Both the position numbers and the translations under genes were made by a program. 64,000 nt of DNA from Candidatus Helarchaeota archaeon (GTDB lineage Archaea > Asgardarchaeota > Lokiarchaeia > Helarchaeales > RDOG01): the NCBI GenBank assembly GCA_019058315.1, contig JAHPZH010000001.1, forward strand, positions 343,536 through 407,535. The letters are read 5' to 3'. Positions 4,431-18,672 of the stretch are shown here, one piece after another. The notes under the pieces are model-generated. The model did not search any database. It was not told the DNA's origin and saw only the letters and a list, made by a program, of their open reading frames with translations. Each line of letters begins with the position of its first letter. The first letter of the stretch is position 1.

Positions 4431-5366
4431 CTAAAAGTACCATTGTCTATTCAAGTAAACTATAGTAAATAATAAAACCAACAGTAATAGAATAAGCAGA
4501 ATTAGAGCACTGATTCTATCAATTTTCCCACCATTATCTAGCCCAACGCAAATAAGTATTGCTGCAATAAAACTAGAAAAAAAAATCCAATAATGTAATG
4601 TATCAAAAATAATACCTTGATAAAAAATCACATATAATGGTATTAGAAACAAAAGAGGAATCAATGATACTTCTATTATCCTTAAAAATCTCTTTTTATT
4701 AATTAAAGCATATGTAAGCAAACCAATAACAAACATTAAGAAATTTGTATAAGCATATTTCCAAAACTCAAATGTCTCAAATGGTCTGGAATAAAGGAAA
4801 ACTAATAAAACGGTCACTAATATAATTGAGCTACCGACACTTATAATAAGATTTCTGGCAAGAGAATGTTCACTAGTAAAATGAGATTTCTTCTCTATTC
4901 GGAATGATTCATCGGAAAAAACACTAGGTCTATAAGGTTCGACTGTATCCAACTCTTCTTCTGTAAATGATAGAGCCTGTTCTGGGTGCCTTATAGCATC
5001 ATATAAACCTGCTAATTTATCTTCTACATCTTCCCAATTCTTTAAATATTCAACTGTTTTATTTAAAGTCGGTTTGAAAGACATAACATCCTCATTAGAT
5101 ATTATTACTAATGCGTACGTTTCTGCTCCGCCACGAGCGGAATCTAAAGAAATAGAAAAGCGTTGAGAAATGCAATTTATTCCACTTAATGAAAAAGAGT
5201 TAAATTCTAGTTGTGAACCAAAACCTATAGCGTTTCTTGCAATTTCTGTTAATAATTTGTCATCATTTTCATAATCCTTATCATCGAAAAACATTGGGTC
5301 TATTGGTACATAGCCTTTTTGTTCATCAAATTTACATAGGAACACGCCTTTCATTTGGTTCATCAC
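4431..5366 (-). CDS. Membrane protein with N-terminal longin/uDENN-like domain and ~5 C-terminal TM helices
   Basis: N-terminal GVFLCKFDEQKGYVP resembles the hhhxxFDxxxGP start of longin/uDENN folds; ARG..YALVII follows; hydrophobic C-terminal half. Confidence 0.6.
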   Translation of the reverse strand: MMNQMKGVFLCKFDEQKGYVPIDPMFFDDKDYENDDKLLTEIARNAIGFGSQLEFNSFSLSGINCISQRFSISLDSARGGAETYALVIISNEDVMSFKPTLNKTVEYLKNWEDVEDKLAGLYDAIRHPEQALSFTEEELDTVEPYRPSVFSDESFRIEKKSHFTSEHSLARNLIISVGSSIILVTVLLVFLYSRPFETFEFWKYAYTNFLMFVIGLLTYALINKKRFLRIIEVSLIPLLFLIPLYVIFYQGIIFDTLHYWIFFSSFIAAILICVGLDNGGKIDRISALILLILLLLVLLFTIVYLNRQWYF

Positions 5367-5593: not shown

Positions 5594-6268
5594 CTATTTT
5601 ATCTCAATGGAAATACCCATAAAATTTGGTTTCACGATCCAGTTAGCTAAATTTGCTTGCTCAATGAATGTTCGAATCTCATCAGGAGTATAACTCGCAT
5701 AAACAGACGATTTCCACCATTTCCATTCCTTTCTGGCAATGAAAGGCCCAATTACGTATAGAATAAATTTTCCTCTAAATCCCAAATCTCTGCGTTCATC
5801 TTCTATGTGGAGTTTTCCACTAGGCTTCATAACTCGTGCAATTTCCAAAAAACCTTTAATGGGGTCGTCCCAATGATGCAAAGAATCATTCGAGATTACA
5901 AGATCATAAGTCGCATTAGAAATATTCTCCATATTCTCCACGATTCCATGTATATACTGCACTCGTTCGGCAACTCCTTCTGCTTCTGCATTTTTTTTTG
6001 CAACCCTAATCATATCAGGTGAGGCTTCCAAACCTTCAACTGAAATATCTGGACGTTCTTTAGCCAGCCAAATCCCAATCCACCCGGGTCCTGGACCTAT
6101 TTCTAGAACTTTAGCATTTTCAGGAGGTATTATGTTTTTTATGATGTGATTAATAAAGCCTCTATATTCAAAACCCATCATTTTCCTCATTTTCTCACTA
6201 TATTCTTCCATAGTCATCTCTTCTTGATCTAAAATTGCGCCACCTTCAGGAACTCTTGTTTTTACCAT
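5594..6268 (-). CDS. Class I SAM-dependent methyltransferase
   Basis: VLEIGPGPG motif I, YDLVISNDSLHHW, RVMKPSG. Confidence 0.92.
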   Translation of the reverse strand: MVKTRVPEGGAILDQEEMTMEEYSEKMRKMMGFEYRGFINHIIKNIIPPENAKVLEIGPGPGWIGIWLAKERPDISVEGLEASPDMIRVAKKNAEAEGVAERVQYIHGIVENMENISNATYDLVISNDSLHHWDDPIKGFLEIARVMKPSGKLHIEDERRDLGFRGKFILYVIGPFIARKEWKWWKSSVYASYTPDEIRTFIEQANLANWIVKPNFMGISIEIK

Positions 6269-6348: not shown

Positions 6349-7224
6349 ATGAAACAAGAGCGTTTAATCAAAAAATTACAAAGACTTAATTTGACAAAAG
6401 AGGAAGCAACCCTATTTCTTTTTCTCTTAACCATTAAATCCGCAACTATCCGAGAAATTCACAATTCAAAGGAATTTTGTTTGAAACAACGACCCAATCT
6501 TTACAAAACACTTAATAATTTGAAGGAAAAGAATTTTGTAGTTGAAGAGGTTAAGGGTGGAAAAAAAAGATTTTTTCCTATTGCACCTCATATGGTGATT
6601 GAGAATTATATTTCTAATCAAGAACAAGAGCTTAAAAAGTTAAAAGAATCAGCACCCAAATTATCTGAAGCAATGGAAAATATTTTAAAAACACCATTTG
6701 AGGAATTTTCCCCAATTCCTGATCCTTTAATTGAATTCATAAGCGGTGTTGTAAATGAGGATTGGAGTATTAGGGAACCTCCTGAGATAATTAAAAAAAG
6801 GGAACTGAGAGCGATTATTTATAGTGTCGAATTTAATACACATCGGCAATTTGCAGGTAATAGTGCTGGTCTTGTTCTCTTTATATTTCGATATCAACAA
6901 CATAGGGATGAATCAATAGAAGAAGTTAAACAATACCAACAGTCTCAATTCGAACAAGCACTTAAATCATTTAATGGACAGGGATTTTTTCAAATTGAAG
7001 ATTATTGGGTTGAAAAAAAATTTATGGAAATAAATGATATGAAGTTTGATTATTCTGAATTTCACGTAAAATCAAATATCTCATCTGATTCTGCAAGTGG
7101 TATAATAACCCTTCTTTTTAAAGAACATCCCACTAAAATTATATCACTTTGGGCAGCAGATCTCAAGGATTTCTTCGATCTTATAACACGAGTAACTAAA
7201 AAATTTGAAGTTTCAACTTTTTAA
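6349..7224 (+). CDS. TrmB-family HTH transcriptional regulator
   Basis: LQRLNLTKEEA..LL, RPNLYKTLNNLKEKNFV..RFFPIAP winged HTH followed by a coiled coil. Confidence 0.75.
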   Translation: MKQERLIKKLQRLNLTKEEATLFLFLLTIKSATIREIHNSKEFCLKQRPNLYKTLNNLKEKNFVVEEVKGGKKRFFPIAPHMVIENYISNQEQELKKLKESAPKLSEAMENILKTPFEEFSPIPDPLIEFISGVVNEDWSIREPPEIIKKRELRAIIYSVEFNTHRQFAGNSAGLVLFIFRYQQHRDESIEEVKQYQQSQFEQALKSFNGQGFFQIEDYWVEKKFMEINDMKFDYSEFHVKSNISSDSASGIITLLFKEHPTKIISLWAADLKDFFDLITRVTKKFEVSTF

Positions 7225-7351: not shown

Positions 7352-8272
7352 ATGAAAGTTCTAATAATGGGACTTAGAAGTGCTGGTAAAACTACTTTAG
7401 TTAAGCACGTTCTTGAAGGAAAAGAATGGGAAGAGATAAAAAACCTTAATCCAACAGAATTTGTTGAAACTACGAGCTATAAATATAGGGGGCTACTTGA
7501 TGTAACAACTTTCGATTGCGGAGGGCAAGAATCGTTCATTTTATCATACTTTACGGAGCAATGGAGTCATAAAATATTTAGTAATGTTTCTGTATTTATT
7601 TGGATTATCGATAGCTCTGATTTACGTACCTTTCGTGAATCTAAAAAAGAATTATTAAAATCCTTAAACTTCATAAAAAATTATTCACCTGGGGCACGTA
7701 TTTTTGTAATTGCAACTAAATACGATGTTAATAAAATTTCCTTAAAAAATATTCGTAAAGAACTAGCAGGATTGGGGATTGAACAAATATCTTCTACCTC
7801 TATTCCACTGGGTATTGCACGTGAAATTGTTTGTACGATTTTAGATGGAACATTGACCAAGGAACTCAAATCAAAAATAACTAAATTGGAAAAAGAGCTT
7901 AATAGATTTAATAAAAAAATAAATGCAATAGCCACATTGATAATTAATAAATCAGATGGTCTAGAATTAGCTTCTTCGGTTAGTTCGGAAAAATTAAATC
8001 CTGAAATTTTAAAATACATATCAACAAAGGCGTTAGTTGAACCATTAAATAGCACCCGACCAATCTTTACTAAACTTCAAAAGGAAGGATATGTCGATTT
8101 GCCAGACGCAGAGTTGGGACTATGGCATGTCGGAACTTATTATGTGAATTTATTTAATATCAATGAACAATTTGCTCTATTCTCTATATTAGAAGAAAGA
8201 AATTTCAAAATAAAAACCTTAATAGGTTATTGTGATTCAATAAAAAACTCAGTTTTACAGTTTTTAGGCTAA
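7352..8272 (+). CDS. Rag/Gtr1-like small GTPase with C-terminal roadblock domain
   Basis: GLRSAGKT, DCGGQESF..YF, IFSNV, SPGARIFVIATKYD; C-terminal ATLIINKSDGLELASS roadblock-like segment. Confidence 0.88.
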   Translation: MKVLIMGLRSAGKTTLVKHVLEGKEWEEIKNLNPTEFVETTSYKYRGLLDVTTFDCGGQESFILSYFTEQWSHKIFSNVSVFIWIIDSSDLRTFRESKKELLKSLNFIKNYSPGARIFVIATKYDVNKISLKNIRKELAGLGIEQISSTSIPLGIAREIVCTILDGTLTKELKSKITKLEKELNRFNKKINAIATLIINKSDGLELASSVSSEKLNPEILKYISTKALVEPLNSTRPIFTKLQKEGYVDLPDAELGLWHVGTYYVNLFNINEQFALFSILEERNFKIKTLIGYCDSIKNSVLQFLG

Positions 8273-8304
8273 ATTCGTGTCAGTAGTTATTTTTATTATG
8301 TATC

Positions 8305-8817
8305 TTACTTTTTCTGCGCTTTTTTAACAGCTTCAAAAAAACCTTTCATCTCATCTATTAATTCCGCTCTTATCGATGTCGGTTTAGCTTTAATTTTTTC
8401 TTGAGGTGGTGTAGGTTTTAAAATAGATTTTCTAAAATCAGCAATTTCTGCTTCAGAAACAGGACCCGTTAGTTTTTGACTATCAATAGGTGGAACACTC
8501 GGTTTTAATTGTTTGGGCATTTCTACTGCTACTTTTGGAGCTTGAGGCGGTAATTCCACTGGTTTTTTGATAAGTGTTTTAAGTTCATCTATATTATTTT
8601 TTATTTGATTAATCATTGATTGGTGAAAAGAATAAATATCTATAATTGTATCAATTCCTCTTTCTAAACTTGTAATTCTTTTTTCTAACTCAATTTCACG
8701 TTGTTCCATCATTCCAAATGCATTAATTATCATTTTGAAAAAGTGATCAAACAAATTAGATACTTCTTCCACATTTCCCTTTTCTAAAGCGTCTGAAAGA
8801 AATTTTCCAAACTCCAT
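8305..8817 (-). CDS. Coiled-coil/Pro-rich protein with beta-thymosin/WH2-like motif
   Basis: Heptad N-half, PVELPPQAP..PSVPP linker, AEIADFRKSILKPTPPQEK, C-terminal amphipathic helix SIRAELIDEMK. Confidence 0.65.
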   Translation of the reverse strand: MEFGKFLSDALEKGNVEEVSNLFDHFFKMIINAFGMMEQREIELEKRITSLERGIDTIIDIYSFHQSMINQIKNNIDELKTLIKKPVELPPQAPKVAVEMPKQLKPSVPPIDSQKLTGPVSEAEIADFRKSILKPTPPQEKIKAKPTSIRAELIDEMKGFFEAVKKAQKK

Positions 8818-8893
8818 TTTATTTCAACTTATATTAATCTATGAAAAATTATAAGATGGATCTCATAATTAAGAATTAGTACAAATACTATTC

Positions 8894-10261
8894 TTAACCG
8901 CTTATTTCCTCTAATTCTTTTACTTTATTTAAAAGTTCTAATGCTTCATTATTTTCGGGGTCAATTTTTAAAGCTTTATTTATAAAATCAATGGCTTTTT
9001 TATAATTTTCTAAATTAACATAAGAAACGCTCATTCCCAGCATAGCCTCAATATCTTCGTCGTCTAATTCAAGGACTTTTCGGTAATTTTTAATGGCTTC
9101 TTTAAATTCACCTTTTTCTTTTAATAAACATGCTTTGTTGTAGAAACTATCAATATCATATTCATTTAGTTCTATTACTTTGTCAAAAAATTTTATTGCT
9201 TCATCATTTTGATTTAATTGTTTTAGAACACAGGCTTTATTAAAATATGCTAAATGGTAAGAAGGATCGAGTTTGATCGCTTTATCAAATATTTCTAAAG
9301 CTTCTTCAAGCTTTAAGAGATCTTGAAGAATTAGGCCCTTATTATTTAAAGCATCCAAATAATCATTTTTCAATTCAATAGCTTTGTTATAACTCTCTAA
9401 AGCCTTTTCTTTTTGCTCAAGTCTACTTAAAATATTCCCTTTTAAGAACCACGCTCTATGGTTTTTTGGTTCATATTCCAATATTTTATCAAAACAAGCT
9501 AAAGCTTCATCAGTTCTATTTAATTCCTCAAAAATATTTGCTTCTGTGAATAAAGCTGCAATATAATTAGGTTCGTATTTTAATAATTTATTTAAACAGT
9601 CTAAGGCTTCTTTAAATCTCTCTAAATTATATAGAATTAAACCTTTTTTATATAATAGTGAGTAATTTTTAGGGTATTTTCTACTCAAGGTATCAAGAAT
9701 TTGAATAACTCTCTCCTGTTCGTTTAAGTAACAAAAAACGACTGTATCAAAAGCCATTATTAAATCTTCTTCAATTAGATCGGAAAGAAAGGCTTTTTTA
9801 TAATATTTCATTGCTTCATCTTTATTTCCCAATTCTTCTACTATAATTCCTTTAATGATTAATGCATAGTTTAATTCGGGAGTAAAAGATAGAATTTTAT
9901 TAAAGCATTCAAGAGCACCTTTGAAATGACGTAATAGGAAATAAGTTAATCCAACTTTGAACCAAGCTTCTTTATTTTCAGGATCTTTTTCCAAAACTAA
10001 TTTAAAATGATCTAATGCTCTCTTATATGCTCCTAATTCAAAGGCTACATTTCCTTTGACTAAATTATTATTTATATTACTTTCGTTTGATTGACCAAAT
10101 TCAATATCTCTAAATTGGAAATCTTTAATTGATGCCACTCCAAACTTAACAATTTCATCAAATGTGAGCGCTTTTCCTTGAGTTTCTCCCCAACCAATCT
10201 TTTTTTTCATTTTATATATTTCTTTGTCGTCTAAATATTTTCTTAGCAACTCATTTTTCAA
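8894..10261 (-). CDS. TPR repeat protein
   Basis: About ten 34-aa TPR units (e.g. AWFLKGNILSRLEQKEKALESYNKAIELKND). Confidence 0.95.
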   Translation of the reverse strand: MKNELLRKYLDDKEIYKMKKKIGWGETQGKALTFDEIVKFGVASIKDFQFRDIEFGQSNESNINNNLVKGNVAFELGAYKRALDHFKLVLEKDPENKEAWFKVGLTYFLLRHFKGALECFNKILSFTPELNYALIIKGIIVEELGNKDEAMKYYKKAFLSDLIEEDLIMAFDTVVFCYLNEQERVIQILDTLSRKYPKNYSLLYKKGLILYNLERFKEALDCLNKLLKYEPNYIAALFTEANIFEELNRTDEALACFDKILEYEPKNHRAWFLKGNILSRLEQKEKALESYNKAIELKNDYLDALNNKGLILQDLLKLEEALEIFDKAIKLDPSYHLAYFNKACVLKQLNQNDEAIKFFDKVIELNEYDIDSFYNKACLLKEKGEFKEAIKNYRKVLELDDEDIEAMLGMSVSYVNLENYKKAIDFINKALKIDPENNEALELLNKVKELEEISG

Positions 10262-10383
10262 AAATTTATCTATTGTAATCCACCTATTTCATTTCAAATT
10301 GATTTCTTATAGATAATTTTAATATAAAAAGTAAATTATTTGTGTAAATTGGTTATTTGCTAAAGTATTTTTGAAATACAAAA

Positions 10384-11316
10384 TTAATCTAACTTCAAAA
10401 CTGAAAGAATATCTGGCTTATATTTCTCGATAGCTTTTTCAATTCTTGCTAATGAATCCAAAGCCGAGATTGTAAATAATGAAACAGTCTTATGTAAATT
10501 GACAATACAAATCGAATTTTCTCCGACTCTATATACCGAAAAATCCGATCTATTATTTTGTAAGAATCCCTGTTTCTTAAATTCTTTTAGAAGTGGGGCT
10601 AAAAAGGGAGGTTCGACTAATTTTAAGCTGATATACTCTAAAAATTCTGCTTTTTCCATACTTAGATATTTTTCAAAATGAGATGCAATTTCAATGCCTT
10701 CATCTGAATTGAATAAAATTGAGACACTCCCATTAATTCTATCGGTGAGTTTTTGTAATAAATCTTGCAATGTAAGTAACCGACCCCCCATTACTTCTTC
10801 CATAAGGTCATCTAAAATTCTCTTAACCTTAAGCTTTGCAGAATTATTTTTTATTGATGTTGAAAAGTAATGTATCTTTATTTTTGGCTCCACTAATTCA
10901 TTTACAATTTTTTTAATCTCTTTTAATTCAACTTTCTTTTTATCGTTTTTATGTGCAAGAATAAAAATTTTAGCATTTGGAGAATATTCCTGTAAAGCAA
11001 TATAGTTTTTTGTAAATTCGGTAATTGATTTTCTAATCTTTCCTTTATCGGATGAGTCTATCACCCAAATCATAATAGTTACTTTATTGAAAACCTTTAT
11101 TCTAAATTGGTCAGTTCTATATTCCTTCAAAAATTGTACTTGTCCACCACAGTCAAATATACTTATATTAATCATTTGTCTGTAATTATACTGATGTGTT
11201 TCTAGGAATTGTGTCGGGGATAGGTTTTTTAGCTCTTGAAATGTTTTATTTTCAAAAACATTTTTTGCTATACTTGTTTTTCCAGCATTATCTAGTCCCA
11301 TCATAATTATTTTCAA
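10384..11316 (-). CDS. Rag/Gtr1-like small GTPase with C-terminal roadblock domain
   Basis: GLDNAGKTS, DCGGQVQF, SPNAKIFILAHKND (compare RagA SPDAKIFCLVHKMD), FSTSI; C-terminal SILFNSDEGIEIAS. Confidence 0.9.
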   Translation of the reverse strand: MKIIMMGLDNAGKTSIAKNVFENKTFQELKNLSPTQFLETHQYNYRQMINISIFDCGGQVQFLKEYRTDQFRIKVFNKVTIMIWVIDSSDKGKIRKSITEFTKNYIALQEYSPNAKIFILAHKNDKKKVELKEIKKIVNELVEPKIKIHYFSTSIKNNSAKLKVKRILDDLMEEVMGGRLLTLQDLLQKLTDRINGSVSILFNSDEGIEIASHFEKYLSMEKAEFLEYISLKLVEPPFLAPLLKEFKKQGFLQNNRSDFSVYRVGENSICIVNLHKTVSLFTISALDSLARIEKAIEKYKPDILSVLKLD

Positions 11317-11669: not shown

Positions 11670-12089
11670 ATGGAAGAAATTCTCTCATTAAAGTTTTTAG
11701 GAATCGGATCAAAGGCAATCAGTACACGTACCACGAAAGACGAGGGGATAATTCATGGTATATTATTACAAAATGATAATAAGGAATTAGCCGTTTTTAT
11801 ATCTGTTATTAGCTTTAAACAAAATAAAGATAAAAAGGGGAAAAATTTAGGAGTTATTGGTGGTTTTACTTTAGAAGATCTAAAAGAACACCTAGAGAAA
11901 CTAAAAAAAGAGACATGGGTTCCACTGGGTCTTATAAAGATCGATCTTGGGGAGAGAGCTGTAAAAAATTTTCTAAAAGATGGGAAAAAACCATTTACTC
12001 TAATCAATTTAATAAAAGATGTAGAGAATGGAAAATTAAATTATATGAAAAGAAGTTTGGATAAAAATTATCAATCTTATATCATGTAA
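11670..12089 (+). CDS. Hypothetical protein
   Basis: 139-aa ATG ORF with native composition; no motif recognised. Confidence 0.7.
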   Translation: MEEILSLKFLGIGSKAISTRTTKDEGIIHGILLQNDNKELAVFISVISFKQNKDKKGKNLGVIGGFTLEDLKEHLEKLKKETWVPLGLIKIDLGERAVKNFLKDGKKPFTLINLIKDVENGKLNYMKRSLDKNYQSYIM

Positions 12090-12139: not shown

Positions 12140-13306
12140 ATGACCGCTGAAATTGAAAAAGAAAAAAGAATCCCCAGATTCAGTTCGATTGATGTATATC
12201 GGGGATATTTAATTGCACTAATGGTGATTCACCATTATGGTGAGTGGGTATACCATCCTCTTAATGGAAATTTTTTATTAATCTCCCTCGATCTTATATT
12301 TATTCAGCTAGGATTATGGCCGGTCTTTAATGCTTTATGTATTAAGCAGAATATCTTTTTAAAAATTCAATATATTTTTAGTTATTTGGGTACTTATCCT
12401 TTCATCATAATTGTAGGTATGGCTTTAGTCCTTTCTACCGAAATAAGGAAACAAAGAGGGTATACTGAACATGAAATTACCAACCATACTATGAAACGTG
12501 TTCTCTGGATTCTTCTTTTTCATATAATTTTAGGTCAAATTGTTTTGGGACCTGGAACTTTATGGTGGTCTGGAGTTTTATCTATAGTAGCCTTTAATAT
12601 ATTCGCTGGCTATTTTTTCCAACGATTGCCTAATAAAATTAATGCCCCTATTGCTGTTTTTATTTTTATTGTATCACCTATAATTAAAGATTTTTTAAAT
12701 ATCCCTAATGTTGGTTATTATGTCGATCCTGACCCTGGAATCCTTGGAGGACTCAGATTCATCGCATATAATATGCTTCCACATTTTTTACCTGTTCTCT
12801 CTTTTACTATAATGGGAATTATACTTGGAAAATTAATAGTAGAGTTTTATAGAAAAGGGAAATTACAAAATTTAACATATATTCTGCTAATTAGTGGAAG
12901 TGTTTTTTGGGTCATGGGGGCTTTAATGGACCCATTTGCTCCCTATTTTGGATACATGTATATTTTAGTTCCTCTTGAAATTTATGAAATGTTTTATGCT
13001 CTTGGACTTTGGTGTATAAGTTTTGGTATCCTTTTCTGGATAATTGAAGTGAAAAGGAAAAAATGGAGAGCTTTCAAATTCTTTGAATTATGTGGCGTTT
13101 CAACTTTATCTTTATATTTTTTCCATCATTTTTTAGGTTTAAACTATTGGATGTATTATAATCATCCATTAATGAATTTTATGTCTACTTTCTCATATTT
13201 CGAAATTTGGGTAGCACTTTGGTCATTTCTATGGATTTATCTTACCCTTTGGTCAAAAGTAAAATATAAGTACAGTCTAGAGTGGTTTATAAGAAAATAT
13301 AGTTGA
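12140..13306 (+). CDS. HGSNAT-like (DUF1624/acyltransferase_3 clan) membrane acyltransferase
   Basis: RFSSIDVYRG..IALMVIHH N-terminal motif, ~10 TM segments, G..TLSLYFFH. Confidence 0.8.
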   Translation: MTAEIEKEKRIPRFSSIDVYRGYLIALMVIHHYGEWVYHPLNGNFLLISLDLIFIQLGLWPVFNALCIKQNIFLKIQYIFSYLGTYPFIIIVGMALVLSTEIRKQRGYTEHEITNHTMKRVLWILLFHIILGQIVLGPGTLWWSGVLSIVAFNIFAGYFFQRLPNKINAPIAVFIFIVSPIIKDFLNIPNVGYYVDPDPGILGGLRFIAYNMLPHFLPVLSFTIMGIILGKLIVEFYRKGKLQNLTYILLISGSVFWVMGALMDPFAPYFGYMYILVPLEIYEMFYALGLWCISFGILFWIIEVKRKKWRAFKFFELCGVSTLSLYFFHHFLGLNYWMYYNHPLMNFMSTFSYFEIWVALWSFLWIYLTLWSKVKYKYSLEWFIRKYS

Positions 13307-16163: not shown

Positions 16164-16709
16164 TTAAAGGAATTTAGATATTCGAATATATTCTATTATT
16201 AAATTATTAAAAGCTTCATCAATGCCTTGATTCTCTTTAGCAGAAGTTTCAACATATAGGGAATCCAATTTTTCAGATAATTTTATCCCATCGTCCATAG
16301 TAACGACCCTCCTGTCCCGTAGATCGATTTTATTTCCAATAATCATGCATGGTGTAATTTCTTTTGATTTTCCCGCTTCAACAACATCAAATATAGTTTT
16401 ATACCAACCCTCAACATTGTCAAATGATTCTTTTCTAGTTACATCATAAACGATTATGATAAGATCAGCACCTCTGGCATAGTCTTTTGCTAGATCTCGA
16501 TAAAGAATTTGACCAGCTAAATCCCAGATAGAAAGATCAACAAAATGCCCTTCCTTATCCTTATAGGATTTTTGAATACACTCAACACCAACAGTAGCTC
16601 CGTAATCAAGAGAGAATCCTTGTCCCAAAAACCTCTTCACTAAACTTGTCTTCCCTACCGCGTAATCTCCTGCTGTTATTAGTTTCAGCCTGTAACGCTT
16701 TAAGGACAA
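16164..16709 (-). CDS. Rab-like small GTPase
   Basis: G1 GDYAVGKT, G2 ATVG, G3 WDLAGQ, YDVT, G4 GNKID, G5 ETSAK; no C-terminal Cys. Confidence 0.93.
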   Translation of the reverse strand: MSLKRYRLKLITAGDYAVGKTSLVKRFLGQGFSLDYGATVGVECIQKSYKDKEGHFVDLSIWDLAGQILYRDLAKDYARGADLIIIVYDVTRKESFDNVEGWYKTIFDVVEAGKSKEITPCMIIGNKIDLRDRRVVTMDDGIKLSEKLDSLYVETSAKENQGIDEAFNNLIIEYIRISKFL

Positions 16710-16730
16710 CTGAAGTCTCTCCTAATTTCC

Positions 16731-17726
16731 TTAAATAATTGTTTTGATTCCTTCAATAATTTTTTCTTTATTTGGTATTATCCATTTTTCCATTTCTGGA
16801 TTAAAAGGTATTGGCACATCTTGTCCAGCCACCGTTTTGACTGGAGCATCAAGATAATCAAAAGCCCCTTCCATTATAATTTTTGTGATCTCACCAGAAA
16901 TTCCTCCCGTTCTACAAGCTTCATGCACAATAACGGCTCTCCCAGTTTTTTTTATGGAATTAACAATCATTTCTTTATCAAAAGGTGAAATTGTTCTTGG
17001 ATCAAGAACTTCAACTGAAATTCCACTTTTCTGAAGTTCGTTTGCTGCCTCAAGAGCGTGTAAGACCATTATTGAAGTTGCTATTACCGTTATATCCGAT
17101 CCTTCTCTTTTAATTTCCGCCTTACCTATTGGAATAGTAAATTCTTCTTCAGGTACTTCCCCAGTTGTGTTATAAAGAAACTTATGTTCACATGAAATTA
17201 CAGGATTGGGATCTTTAATAGCGGATTTCATTAGTCCATAAGCATCATGAGGAGTACTTGGTTGAATTACTTTAAGCCCAGGAATGTGAATAAACCAAGC
17301 TTCAAGACTTTGAGAGTGATGGGTTGCATAAGAACCCCCCGAGCCAAATGGCAATCTAACAACAATTGGAACTGAACCCTTTCCTCCAAACATATAAAAT
17401 TGCTTAGCTGCTTGATTACAAATTTGATCCATAGCTAAAGCACTTAAATCACCAAACATAATCTCTGCAACAACTTTCATCCCACTTAATGCGGCACCAA
17501 CAGCACACCCTATAATAGCACTTTCCGAAATTGGTGTATCTCTTACTCTTTCTGGTCCAAATTCCTCTTGTAATCCTTGAGTTACTTTAAATGCTCCTTG
17601 CCAATTTTTTCCAATATCTTCTCCAATCAAAACTAGGTCTGGATCTTTTATCATTTCTTCTCGAAGAGCTCTATTTAGAGCTTCATTATATTTCATTACT
17701 ACCATTTCATTCACCTGCATAAACAT
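16731..17726 (-). CDS. acoB: Acetoin/2-oxoacid dehydrogenase E1 beta subunit
   Basis: GEDIG, RVRDTPISE, DQICNQAAK, HSQSLEAWF. Confidence 0.9.
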   Translation of the reverse strand: MFMQVNEMVVMKYNEALNRALREEMIKDPDLVLIGEDIGKNWQGAFKVTQGLQEEFGPERVRDTPISESAIIGCAVGAALSGMKVVAEIMFGDLSALAMDQICNQAAKQFYMFGGKGSVPIVVRLPFGSGGSYATHHSQSLEAWFIHIPGLKVIQPSTPHDAYGLMKSAIKDPNPVISCEHKFLYNTTGEVPEEEFTIPIGKAEIKREGSDITVIATSIMVLHALEAANELQKSGISVEVLDPRTISPFDKEMIVNSIKKTGRAVIVHEACRTGGISGEITKIIMEGAFDYLDAPVKTVAGQDVPIPFNPEMEKWIIPNKEKIIEGIKTII

Positions 17727-18672
17727 CTTTTAATGCATCTTCAACTGGGGGAAATGGACTCTCCATAGCATAATCAACAGCTTTTTGAATTTCCTCTTCA
17801 ACCATTTCCTCAATCTTTACTATTTCCTCTTCTGTAATATTGTTTTCTAGCATCTTAATTTTAATAATCTTAAGTGGATCTCTTTTAAACCAACTTTCTG
17901 CCTCTTCTTGGGGTCTATATTTAGCTGGATCGTAGCGAGAATGTCCTTTTATTCGATAAGTTTTACACTCGATTAAAGTGGGACCATCACCATTTCTGGC
18001 ACGGTTAATGGCATCTCCAGCAACCTTATAAACTTCTAAAACGTCATTTCCATCAACTACTACACCGGGAATACCATATCCAATTGCTCTATCCGCAATG
18101 TTTTCAATAGCAGTAACTGATTTTATACTGGTGCCCATAGCATACAAATTATTTTCACAAACAAAAATTACGGGTAATTTCCATACCGCAGCAAGATTAA
18201 TACCTTCGTGAAATGTTCCGTTGTTTGAAGCACCATCACCAAAAAAACAAGCACAGACTCTCTGATTATTATATTTTAATTTACATGTAAGCCCTGCGCC
18301 AGTAGCTATTGGTATACTACCTCCAACCACACCATTTGCCCCTAATATTCCAATATCAAAATCTGCAATATGCATACTTCCCCCTTTACTTTTACAATAA
18401 CCCGTTTCCTTGGAAAATAATTCCGCAAACATCTTATCAATTGAAGCACCTTTTGCTATACAATGTCCATGACCACGATGAGTGCTTGTAATATAATCTT
18501 CTTTGGATAAATGGGCACAAACTCCGACTGCAACGGCTTCTTCTCCCATATAAGTATGGAGAGTGCCAGGAATTACGGTGGTTCCTAATAATTCATATGA
18601 TTTTTCTTCAAACCGCCTTATTGTAAACATGTTGGCGTAAAAATCGAGTAATTTCATCTTTTCCAGTTCCAT
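17707..18672 (-). CDS. acoA: Acetoin/2-oxoacid dehydrogenase E1 alpha subunit (TPP-dependent)
   Basis: THRGHGH, GGSMH, GDGA..N TPP motif, YRIKGHS. Confidence 0.9.
   Translation of the reverse strand: MELEKMKLLDFYANMFTIRRFEEKSYELLGTTVIPGTLHTYMGEEAVAVGVCAHLSKEDYITSTHRGHGHCIAKGASIDKMFAELFSKETGYCKSKGGSMHIADFDIGILGANGVVGGSIPIATGAGLTCKLKYNNQRVCACFFGDGASNNGTFHEGINLAAVWKLPVIFVCENNLYAMGTSIKSVTAIENIADRAIGYGIPGVVVDGNDVLEVYKVAGDAINRARNGDGPTLIECKTYRIKGHSRYDPAKYRPQEEAESWFKRDPLKIIKIKMLENNITEEEIVKIEEMVEEEIQKAVDYAMESPFPPVEDALKDVYAGE

Follow-up and report, generated by a model that had tools for sequence, protein, structure and literature searches.

The genes at positions 7,352 to 11,316 of a 64,000-nucleotide stretch of Candidatus Helarchaeota archaeon DNA (the window), together with the nearby gene longinTM, are probably a composite of two separately conserved Rag modules, a judgment that includes the mechanism proposed below. 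Module A would be an operon in the order Rag2 (HKxD type), TPR, longinTM, and module B a two-gene cassette in which Rag1 ([ST]KYD type) is convergent with p170. Judged from sequence, the window locus would represent a merger of these modules, within which a Rag heterodimer is a possibility.

Table 1. Positions (window numbering) and properties of the module genes.
Feature	Positions	Strand	Description
Rag1	7352..8272	+	306 aa; Gtr1/RagA-family GTPase, G4 TKYD, C-terminal roadblock domain (AF2 model); GTPase of module B
p170	8305..8817	-	170 aa; helical N-terminus, Pro-rich linker, basic tail; convergent with Rag1
p170 tail	8308..8457	-	beta-thymosin/WH2-like peptide, then predicted second helix
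TPR protein	8894..10261	-	455 aa; ~10 TPR repeats; second of the three module A genes
Rag2	10384..11316	-	310 aa; Gtr1/RagA-family GTPase, G4 HKND; first gene of module A
longinTM	4431..5366	-	N-terminal longin domain and ~5 TM helices; third of the three ancestral module A genes

A preliminary description of the locus had placed four open reading frames here, and all were recovered with its positions and strands: Rag1 and Rag2 are convergent and ~2 kb apart, with p170 and the TPR gene in between, and Rag2, TPR, and p170 share a strand. In the window itself, the interval from Rag1 to longinTM has additionally gained genes for a TrmB-like protein and a methyltransferase. The window's genome contains three members of the Rag1/Rag2 subfamily, and two of the three would lie this close by chance with P ~0.003; chance proximity is unlikely.

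The two GTPases scored above the 22-bit cut-off of Pfam Gtr1_RagA (PF04670), at 88.5 bits for Rag1 (E 6e-25) and 109.8 bits for Rag2 (E 2e-31), and are 37% identical over 287 residues (E 1e-60) in a colinear full-length alignment, in agreement with their earlier designation as convergent Rag/Gtr1-like paralogs. The motifs cited for that designation were likewise present, namely a common G3 (FDCGGQ), the YSPGARIF and YSPNAKIF segments found across the pair, and differing G4 motifs, TKYD in Rag1 versus HKND, the eukaryotic Rag type, in Rag2. The G4 His is common to Rag2 and RagX, a Rag2-type protein; the corresponding residue is Thr or Ser in Rag1 and Rag3. The AF2 model of Rag1 (pLDDT 86) is a full Rag fold, a GTPase plus a C-terminal roadblock domain of topology a-bb-a-bbb-a. 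Foldseek matched this model over its full length to RagA/Gtr1 (E 6e-22), and VIA-align returned Z 23.4 for RagA (276 residues aligned, rmsd 3.8, residues 1-306), 22.8 for Gtr1, and 20.0 for RagC. The roadblock domain that had been assigned to both proteins is thus seen in the Rag1 model and its structural matches; in Rag2 it is presumed to be present from the colinear alignment with Rag1. Both sequences are nearer RagA/Gtr1 than RagC/Gtr2, so A/C-type asymmetry is absent, contrary to the RagA/RagC-like arrangement first proposed.

Phylogenetic analysis placed Rag1 and Rag3 in one clade (97/86 support) without Rag2, and Rag2 in a separate clade (100/100 support), with the grouping of Rag2 and RagX as a polytomy. 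Rag1 and Rag2 are therefore ancient paralogs of an archaeal duplication and not the products of a recent tandem duplication, which agrees with the diverged paralogs that had been anticipated. Rag3 also adjoins a TPR gene, a different one; TPR genes are common in this genome.

We scanned 400 Asgard species genomes, consisting of the window's genome and 399 others. Rag1 orthologs and strong p170 homologs were each present in eight (G000, G123-G127, G007, and G008), and the longinTM profile in seven, the same set minus G008 (84% complete). Rag1 orthologs (51-57% identity) in 7 of the 399 other genomes each adjoin p170, and this adjacency holds in all seven other species genomes having either gene; module B, with its convergent genes, was also found on further metagenome contigs. 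In these genomes, and also in L005-L007, L047, and L049/L050, p170 and Rag1 are immediate convergent neighbors, with a 4-nt overlap of the two genes in L015, L022, L023, and L049/L050. The adjacency persists at 30-40% p170 identity in at least four families, and at every informative locus p170 has a Rag1 ortholog as its convergent neighbor, the one exception being an extended variant, P0040, which does not adjoin any Rag. Convergent genes do not share a transcript, so the basis of the Rag1-p170 link is conserved adjacency together with co-occurrence, in lineages that are related and not independent. An association of p170 with a Rag, suggested previously, thus holds for its convergent neighbor Rag1 (7/7 other genomes) and not for the co-oriented Rag2.

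Module A was evident from loci L051-L053, in which flanks syntenic with those of the window enclose a core of Rag2, TPR, and longinTM without p170 or Rag1; the TPR ortholog (54% identity) sits between the other two genes and overlaps longinTM by 4 nt. Rag2 is 62-63% identical to that of the window in such relatives and 62-79% identical across its orthologs. RagX lies directly upstream of longinTM in family f3 (G127) and 2.4-3.9 kb away in the three f2 genomes; Rag2-type genes are linked with longinTM in three families. In the window's lineage module B lies inside module A, between TPR and longinTM, and the single longinTM gene of G000 is now beside both Rag1 and Rag2. The four genes of the original description are retained together in L005 and L054/L007, and hence are syntenic outside the window, although in close relatives only; they are not a conserved unit, as relatives have Rag2-TPR-longinTM without p170/Rag1, and in f2, f3, and f11 Rag1-p170 is away from any Rag2-type gene. 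A longin membrane protein adjoins Rag1-p170 in f11-type loci and L047, and in an ENA contig lies directly upstream of p170; in f2 and f3 it does not adjoin Rag1. Family f11 has Rag1 as its sole strong Rag (G007, 91% complete), and this lineage without Rag2-type genes retains Rag1, p170, and the longin membrane protein. Since Rag2-type genes are missing there, an obligate Rag1-Rag2 heterodimer is not ancestral, and we infer that the core function of Rag1 is independent of Rag2. Among 149 sampled genomes from families f5 and f6, both within the window's class, no orthologs of Rag1, Rag2, p170, or longinTM were found at the thresholds used.

The TPR protein matched Pfam TPR_1 over 10 stretches (E 4e-62). 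The longin domain of longinTM occupies approximately residues 1-125, ahead of the TM helices, and its AF2 model has the topology bb-a-bbb-a-a (pLDDT ~85). With this domain as the query, the best nine Foldseek matches were chains of Rag-GAP complexes (GATOR1/SEA, FLCN), with marginal E values of ~1e-3, and a wide VIA-align search gave Z 11.2 for a GATOR1 chain (8fw5_B) and 10.7 for an FLCN-complex chain (6nzd_H). The motifs KFDE..G..P, IA.NAIG.G, and ARG are invariant; strands 1 and 2 are separated by a conserved G..P turn, and the ARGG loop that carries the invariant Arg is likewise conserved. These model-based matches make longinTM a candidate membrane-anchored Rag regulator. In the mechanism that we propose, each Rag would be a membrane-proximal GTP/GDP switch, and longinTM, a multi-pass membrane protein with a cytoplasmic N-terminal longin domain, would anchor and/or regulate it, most likely as a GAP acting through the conserved Arg, R74 being the candidate counterpart of the FLCN or NPRL2 arginine finger. 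p170 would serve as a Rag1-specific partner or effector whose tail recruits a further factor. Rag1 and Rag2 may pair via their roadblock domains in the window's lineage, though this is less likely than not.

p170 consists of a conserved helical N-terminus (residues 1-85), a Pro-rich linker (86-120, nine Pro), and a conserved basic tail (121-170); it had no Pfam or PDB match, and a search of 1.84 billion representative proteins gave just 14 clusters. The tail consensus is [DE]E.I..FR..[IL]LKP.P..E followed by KP.S[ILV]R.AL..E.K..F, the latter a predicted second helix. Even where overall identity falls to 30%, there is no variation at I125, F128, R129, L133, K134, P135, and P137, or at P146, S148, R150, L153, E156, and K158. 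The WH2-like character given to the gene earlier is visible as a motif at residues 122-141, and profile methods do not recognize it: neither the Pfam Thymosin and WH2 models nor a PDB profile search detected p170. Actin monomers are the most plausible candidate for the factor recruited by the tail, itself a tentative and rather doubtful proposal. A stronger contender, yet still short of even odds, is that p170 regulates or tethers Rag1 specifically and has nothing to do with actin, being for instance an extended Ragulator-like (LAMTOR1/Ego1-style) partner with helices packing on the roadblock domain or a GEF- or GDI-like factor, and that the thymosin-beta4 likeness arose by chance in a Lys/Glu-rich amphipathic peptide. 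The strict adjacency to Rag1 and the lack of a Thymosin, WH2, or other family match are consistent with this alternative, as are the post hoc choice of the motif, the LKPT in place of canonical LKKT, the replacement of the LKP Lys by Thr in P0045, and a modest pairwise alignment to thymosin-beta4 (hhalign, 21 columns, 57% identity, P 0.0027, probability only 11%). Helices of partner proteins also dock on roadblock-type domains, according to Tran et al. (PMC10933270). Against it, the tail is identical to thymosin-beta4 residues 6-25 at 12 of 20 positions, the top score among 1.9 million genome windows (next, 10), and the matching I, F, L, and K (spacing i, i+3, i+8, i+9) are family invariants. 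The tail is also C-terminal in an unrelated 756-aa protein and so behaves like a portable module. WH2 proteins typically have a helix, an extended Pro-rich stretch, and a helix, with a poly-Pro linker upstream, a layout that p170 shares. There is also a precedent for Pro as the third residue of the motif, the FKPV of a thymosin-beta4/Cordon-bleu chimera of solved structure (PDB 4pl8).

The arrangement originally envisaged, an obligate asymmetric RagA/RagC-like roadblock heterodimer of Rag1 and Rag2 with TPR as scaffold and p170 as actin-directed effector of the dimer, appears unlikely. It could account for the presence of ancient paralogs on either side of the deepest split in one subfamily, with unlike G4 motifs and closer spacing than expected by chance, for the co-occurrence of both types in f1, f2, and one f3 genome, and for one longinTM gene lying beside both Rags; an MK-D1 Rag-like operon pair is moreover modeled as a roadblock heterodimer in PMC10933270. 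However, the four-gene arrangement is confined to close relatives, with the Rags unlinked elsewhere, L051-L053 have module A without Rag1, and f11 has Rag1 as its sole strong Rag; in addition, the TPR gene goes with Rag2 rather than Rag1, no A/C split is seen, and the solved Asgard Rag-like proteins LokiRagO (PDB 8yl2) and LokiRagM (8zla, 9m28) are a homotetramer and a monomer. That the genes are neighbors by drift with no common function, in Asgard genomes rich in small GTPases, TPR, and longin proteins, is highly improbable: 54 matches to the Gtr1_RagA model in the genome (~24 strong), the abundance of TPR genes, with another beside Rag3, and the two genes separating Rag1 from longinTM would allow it, whereas the near-identical and very narrow profiles of Rag1, p170, and longinTM (8, 8, and 7 of 400), the persistent Rag1-p170 adjacency with its 4-nt overlaps, and the Rag2-type/longinTM linkage in three families oppose it.

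The proposed composite of two modules resembles several known systems in part. The nutrient-signaling Rags of eukaryotes (RagA/B-RagC/D; yeast Gtr1-Gtr2) have in common with it the Pfam family, the GTPase-roadblock CRD architecture, and the motifs DxGGQ, [H]KxD, and YSPxAKIF, and candidate longin regulators are encoded near the window Rags. They differ in that the window paralogs, both RagA/Gtr1-like, stem from an archaeal duplication rather than from the A/C split; in that Rag1 has T/S for H in G4; and in that the heterodimer is here only a candidate, one Asgard lineage having Rag1 alone. Asgard Rag-like pairs as such are already published: the one-locus MK-D1 paralogs are modeled as a roadblock-joined heterodimer (Tran et al. 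2024, PMC10933270), and LokiRagO, like Rag1 an Asgard GTPase-roadblock protein, aligns with the Rag1 model at Z 21.4 (VIA-align). The published Asgard Rags belong to another subfamily, f5 and f6 having given no orthologs of the window genes at the thresholds used, and the window combines two merged modules and not one operon. The available part of PMC10933270 describes no p170-like partner for the MK-D1 pair, and the Rag1-p170 pairing appears to be new.

With the longin Rag GAPs (FLCN-FNIP and GATOR1 NPRL2-NPRL3) and the Asgard GP-motif longins of FLCN/SMCR8 type, longinTM shares the longin fold, its best matches being GATOR1/SEA/FLCN chains; it has a G..P turn and an invariant Arg and is linked in the genome to Rag-family GTPases. 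Asgard longins with a GP motif and an Arg finger were reported in 2025, and the GTPase that they serve was posed as a question (PMC12290439). Unlike those proteins, longinTM has ~5 TM helices instead of a DENN or other C-terminal soluble domain and has no known second longin partner, its GAP role being a candidate one. Published reports that we found of archaeal WH2-like motifs place them only inside Asgard gelsolins (PMC9433394; bioRxiv 2025.11.30.690169). The p170 tail has the hydrophobic spacing and L-K motif of beta-thymosin/WH2 peptides (thymosin-beta4, ciboulot, Cordon-bleu, WASP/WAVE/WIP), with a Pro-rich stretch ahead of the motif and a second helix ~15 residues beyond it, and p170 is tied to a small GTPase as are WASP-type effectors; it differs in having LKPT and not LKKT, in being missed by the Pfam Thymosin/WH2 models, and in that its actin binding is putative. 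MglA-MglB is a prokaryotic small GTPase with a roadblock/longin-type regulator, linked to cell polarity and the cytoskeleton. In the window Rags, which belong to the Gtr1_RagA and not the MglA family, GTPase and roadblock domain are instead fused in one protein, the usual Rag arrangement.

Both GTPases of the locus belong to the Rag/Gtr family. The source genome (5.8 Mb, 12 contigs, GC ~30%) contained the four open reading frames Rag1, p170, TPR and Rag2 as the preliminary description had laid them out, and the public homologs carried the labels Helarchaeota, Promethearchaeota or Hodarchaeota. Rag1 and Rag2 scored 88.5 and 109.8 bits, respectively, against Gtr1_RagA (PF04670; curated cut-off of 22) and were 37% identical across nearly their whole length. 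The top PDB sequence matches of both proteins were yeast Gtr1 and human RagA (E ~1e-15 to 1e-16), whereas the Gtr2/RagC matches were far weaker for both (E 2e-6 or weaker). Eukaryotic Rags form obligate heterodimers of a RagA/B-type and a RagC/D-type subunit; this division was not seen in the pair, as both are nearer Gtr1/RagA than Gtr2/RagC. In the subfamily alignment, GxxxxGKT of G1, the Thr of switch I and DxGGQ do not vary, and both Rag1 and Rag2 keep G1, switch I, G3 and the Asp of G4 intact. Their G4 motifs do differ, as had been claimed, with TKYD in Rag1 and HKND in Rag2; [ST]KYD was found throughout the Rag1 clade, representing a clade-specific replacement of His by Thr or Ser that keeps the guanine-specifying Asp. 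An AF2 model of Rag1 obtained with 20 subfamily sequences (mean pLDDT of 86) displayed a GTPase domain followed by a roadblock domain (a-bb-a-bbb-a) at residues 170-305. This model matched RagA/Gtr1 over the full length by Foldseek (E 6e-22) and by VIA-align (Z 22-23; best Z 23.4 over 276 residues, rmsd 3.8). The C-terminal roadblock domain attributed to both paralogs was thereby confirmed for Rag1; for Rag2 it is predicted from colinear alignment to Rag1 alone, which extends to the C-terminus with no large gaps. A roadblock CRD fused to the GTPase is thus common to Rag1 and the eukaryotic Rags, and probably to Rag2.

We searched 400 Asgard species genomes, the window's own included, for Rag1 and p170. 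Rag1 orthologs (52-57% identity) were present in seven other genomes (three of family f2, two of f3 and two of f11), and p170 had strong homologs, at E values of 4e-11 or lower, in precisely these seven; five further weak p170 matches (E 4e-5 to 7e-4), with partial coverage and mostly in the helical part, were left uncounted. In 7/7 of these genomes p170 was immediately convergent to Rag1, and the two genes overlap by 4 nt at loci L015, L022 and L023. The convergent arrangement recurred in the close relatives L005-L007 and on contigs L047 and L049/L050, and an ENA contig carries a partial 236-aa gene, known by position alone, at the convergent position of p170. The sole exception to the adjacency was an extended p170 variant, P0040. 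The whole p170 family amounts to 14 clusters among 1.84 billion representative proteins. A 455-aa relative of the longin membrane protein, longinTM, adjoins Rag1-p170 in f11-type loci and in L047.

Coiled-coil genes were observed next to Rag genes in f2 (loci L021-L023 and L055-L057). One type, encoding proteins of 193-212 aa, immediately precedes Rag1 in the same orientation, with an overlap in L021, and a different coiled-coil protein of 206-213 aa is encoded divergently to RagX, the Rag2-type gene of f2 and f3. These f2 proteins may be lineage-specific Rag partners.

No Rag2 ortholog of >40% identity was found among the 399 other Asgard species genomes, and orthologs of 62-79% identity were located on metagenome contigs. 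At L051-L053 (62-63% identity to the window for Rag2, 54% for TPR and 52-53% for longinTM) the flanks are syntenic with the window, and the core consists of Rag2 -> TPR -> longinTM, with a 4-nt overlap between the last two genes; p170 and Rag1 are absent. Synteny of all four genes, which the preliminary description had treated as one unit, is retained in L005 and L054 plus L007, with p170 and Rag1 between TPR and longinTM, but does not extend to L051-L053. L054 has an adh_short gene between Rag2 and TPR, and L006 is uninformative on Rag2 upstream of TPR, with 842 bp assembled that hold neither Rag2 nor adh_short. RagX of f2 and f3 has the G4 His plus other features in common with Rag2; a homolog of longinTM is found 2.4-3.9 kb from it in 3/3 f2 genomes, and in the f3 genome G127 it is directly upstream of longinTM. 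The longinTM profile matched 7/400 genomes, equal to the Rag1 plus p170 set minus G008 (84% complete). The simplest reading is that the locus comprises two conserved modules, each connected to a longin membrane protein, that merged in the window's lineage. On that simplest reading, module A is a Rag2-type GTPase plus longinTM, with TPR added in the window's family, and module B is Rag1 plus p170.

Additional genes accompany the modules. The TPR protein itself has 10 repeat stretches in Pfam (TPR_1, E 3.7e-62). In the window, the Rag1-longinTM gap is occupied by two genes, one class I methyltransferase-like and one for a TrmB-like HTH protein; both are absent there in L005 and L006, where the Rag1-longinTM spacing is ~200 bp. 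Divergent from Rag2 is a gene for a protein with no family match, beside a gene for an HGSNAT-like membrane protein, and the synteny of these two genes with Rag2 extends to L051-L054. L051 and L052, although distant relatives, keep near the module a run encoding E1-alpha, E1-beta and a small Rab/Arf-like GTPase, at 84-90% identity for the E1 subunits and 61-63% for the GTPase, and therefore this association is also conserved.

Coordinates of the genes and loci discussed in the text
Feature	Location	Strand	Length
longinTM	window 4431-5366	-	311 aa
Class I methyltransferase-like gene	window 5594-6268	-	
TrmB-like HTH gene	window 6349-7224	+	
Rag1	window 7352-8272	+	
p170	window 8305-8817	-	170 aa
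TPR	window 8894-10261	-	
Rag2	window 10384-11316	-	
Gene divergent from Rag2	window 11670-12089	+	139 aa
HGSNAT-like gene	window 12140-13306	+	388 aa
E1-alpha, E1-beta, GTPase run	window 16164-18672		
E1-alpha, E1-beta, GTPase run	L051:3559-6385		
f2 coiled-coil gene upstream of Rag1	L021:8791-9372	-	
f2 coiled-coil gene upstream of Rag1	L022:9688-10278	-	
f2 coiled-coil gene upstream of Rag1	L023:9533-10171	-	
Longin-ubiquitin-like fusion P0018 (L039)	G000:C10:181556-182236	+	
longinTM-type domain, f3	G126:C95:38271-38639		reading frame of 1223 aa
longinTM-type domain, f3	G127:C414:2019-2438		reading frame of 981 aa
P0045 (also L046)	L045:6001-8271	+	756 aa
Extended p170 variant P0040	L048:6001-7041	+	
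Rag3 locus L038	G000:C11:390001-402000		
Rag3	L038:7760-8707	-	

The AF2 model of longinTM (28 input sequences) revealed an N-terminal longin domain of bb-a-bbb-a-a topology (pLDDT ~85). Its best nine Foldseek matches were all chains of GATOR1, SEA or FLCN complexes, with marginal E values of ~1e-3, and an independent all-against-all structural search (VIA-align) ranked first 8fw5_B (GATOR1, Z 11.2), 6nzd_H (FLCN complex, Z 10.7) and, in third place, the Lokiarchaeal longin 8yqg (Z 10.6). The longin fold is the same as in FLCN and NPRL2, but the C-terminal half of longinTM consists of ~5 TM helices instead of a DENN-type domain. Three motifs are invariant (KFDE..G..P, IA.NAIG.G and ARG), with G14 and P17 between strands 1-2 and R74 in the ARG loop of strands 4-5. 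The eukaryotic proteins use arginine fingers, R164 in FLCN and R78 in NPRL2, and R74 is a candidate arginine finger of longinTM, as G14 and P17 are a candidate GP motif. No paired longin gene that could provide a second, FNIP/NPRL3-like subunit was found at the window locus, and the only longinTM paralog in the genome is a longin-ubiquitin-like fusion encoded elsewhere. In this fusion, P0018, a longin domain 60% identical to that of longinTM over 134 aa is joined to a ubiquitin-like domain (PF00240) that replaces the TM helices; P0017 of another MAG is the same fusion. In f3, longinTM-type domains open larger reading frames. A study of 2025 reported Asgard longins of the FLCN/SMCR8 type that have both an arginine finger and a GP motif, and raised the question of whether their clients are ArfR or Rag/Gtr GTPases (PMC12290439). 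The gene order described here points to Rag-family clients.

Residues 1-85 of p170 are conserved, with invariant M29, N32, G35 and E38, and are predicted to be helical or coiled-coil. The linker is Pro-rich (9 Pro/35 residues), and the tail contains invariant I125, F128, R129, L133, K134, P135 and P137 together with a second invariant block (P146, S148, R150, L153, E156 and K158) that is kept down to 30% overall identity. We found no family match for p170 in Pfam or the PDB: the full-length protein yielded noise only against the PDB (haemagglutinin coiled coils), the tail had no match in a Pfam hmmscan at E up to 10, p170 was unlisted in a whole-genome scan with PF01290 (Thymosin) and PF02205 (WH2), and a PDB profile search with the tail returned no thymosin or WH2 chain. 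The tail sequence I..F....LKPT has the spacing of I9, F12, L17 and K18 in thymosin-beta4, and these matching positions are those that contact actin in WH2/thymosin-actin structures. By hhalign, the tail profile aligned with thymosin-beta4 residues 5-25 over 21 columns at 57% identity (P 0.0027), with a probability of only 11%. The genome was also scanned without gaps for likeness to thymosin-beta4 (query sequence confirmed 100% against PDB 4pl7 and 4pl8), using all ORFs of >=60 aa and 1.9 million windows. p170 ranked first with 12/20 identities, compared with 10 for the runner-up; from the histogram fall-off, a few hundredths of 12/20-type matches are expected per genome. WH2/thymosin peptides combine an amphipathic helix with an LKK[TV]-type motif; the third motif residue of the p170 tail is Pro, and Pro is also found at this position in a solved thymosin/Cordon-bleu chimera (PDB). 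Actin binding by the tail, judged from these sequence comparisons, is conceivable yet somewhat unlikely. The tail may instead serve Rag1 or another partner, a serious possibility if short of probable; Pfam and PDB profiles fail to recognize the tail, and the motif was picked out post hoc, both of which count against actin binding.

The tail behaves as a portable module because a p170-like tail also ends an unrelated protein, P0045. This protein has a Walker-A-like GLQYSGKT sequence and a Pro-rich stretch before the tail, and its gene closes a series of four large genes that share one orientation; neither P0045 nor its scanned neighbours (two of the four-gene run scanned) have Pfam or PDB annotation. 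Extended p170 variants were also observed, with an extra N-terminal coiled coil in P0038 and P0040 and long acidic 'KEEPDE' C-terminal repeats in P0039 and P0040. P0040, the sole extended variant for which the context was read, is not beside a Rag gene.

The asymmetric Rag1-Rag2 heterodimer proposed earlier may exist as one specific to the window's lineage, at clearly less than even odds. The Rag1 and Rag2 types are ancient and differ in G4, they co-occur in most genomes of the order, and in the window's lineage both are found at a single locus together with the sole longinTM of the genome. However, they are unlinked outside that lineage, module B is missing beside module A at L051-L053, Rag1 is the only strong Rag in G007 (91% complete), both proteins are A-type by sequence, and, of the Asgard Rag-like proteins with known structures, one is a homotetramer and the other a monomer according to their PDB titles. 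An obligate, ancestral Rag1-Rag2 heterodimer is therefore unlikely. The proximity of the two genes is unlikely to reflect chance and does not stem from recent duplication. The Gtr1_RagA model had 54 matches genome-wide, but the subfamily itself has just three members of full length in this genome, namely Rag1, Rag2 and Rag3 (contig C11); the chance that two of the three lie within ~2 kb is P ~0.003. Maximum-likelihood trees united Rag1 with Rag3 (support 97/86) and placed Rag2 in a separate clade (100/100), with Rag2 and RagX of related families forming an unresolved basal polytomy; from this topology, the window's Rag1 and Rag2 represent the deepest split of the subfamily. Recent tandem duplication is rejected, as the nearest paralog of Rag1 is Rag3, on another contig (41% versus 36% identity).

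The TPR protein goes with Rag2, and the scaffold role once suggested for it is conjectural. A shorter TPR gene follows Rag3, which suggests a recurrent Rag-TPR association. Genes on the same strand after Rag3 encode this TPR protein (139 aa), a CBS-pair protein (144 aa) and a protein of 631 aa with four CBS domains, the N-terminal FLCFFDEARGH of which reads like the strand-turn motif of longinTM. A further Rag-like GTPase of 303 aa and a protein with weak likeness to arrestin_C are encoded 5 kb away. Together these genes may form a ligand-sensing Rag cluster.

Tran et al. 2024 (PMC10933270) already describe Rag-like GTPases of Asgard archaea with their roadblock domains, including two encoded in one operon and modelled as a heterodimer, and explicitly call the role of these GTPases an open question; Asgard Rag-like structures are also already in the PDB. 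Four features appear to be new: the two-module structure of the window locus, the strict pairing of Rag1 with p170, the likeness of the p170 tail to thymosin/WH2 peptides and the membrane-anchored form of a Rag-linked longin. The merged modules bear, in addition, on the GTPase partners of Asgard FLCN/NPRL2-like 'GP-motif' longins (PMC12290439). Conserved gene order links both Rag types to a membrane-anchored longin, one of them also to the rare p170, and the locus with its relatives provides five small proteins as a compact set open to testing. If these links hold, Rag-longin regulation predates eukaryotes, in membrane-anchored form, and at least one Rag type may ancestrally have acted on the cytoskeleton instead of on TOR signalling. 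Should the gene-order result alone hold, the pair would merely add to the Asgard Rag-like paralogs already described.

That Rag1-p170 is an archaeal GTPase-to-actin module, with p170 carrying actin monomers to a longin-marked membrane site, is a speculative proposal that we consider improbable. p170 would dock on the Rag-family GTPase via its conserved N-terminal helices, its Pro-rich linker and beta-thymosin/WH2-type tail would bind or deliver actin monomers, and this would take place where the longin protein marks the membrane. Were this true, p170 would be the first free-standing WH2/thymosin-type peptide outside eukaryotes, and Asgard Rag-like GTPases would gain a cytoskeletal role, not a TOR-type one. 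Rag1-p170 would then represent a prokaryotic counterpart of the logic by which small GTPases act on WASP/WAVE/WIP.
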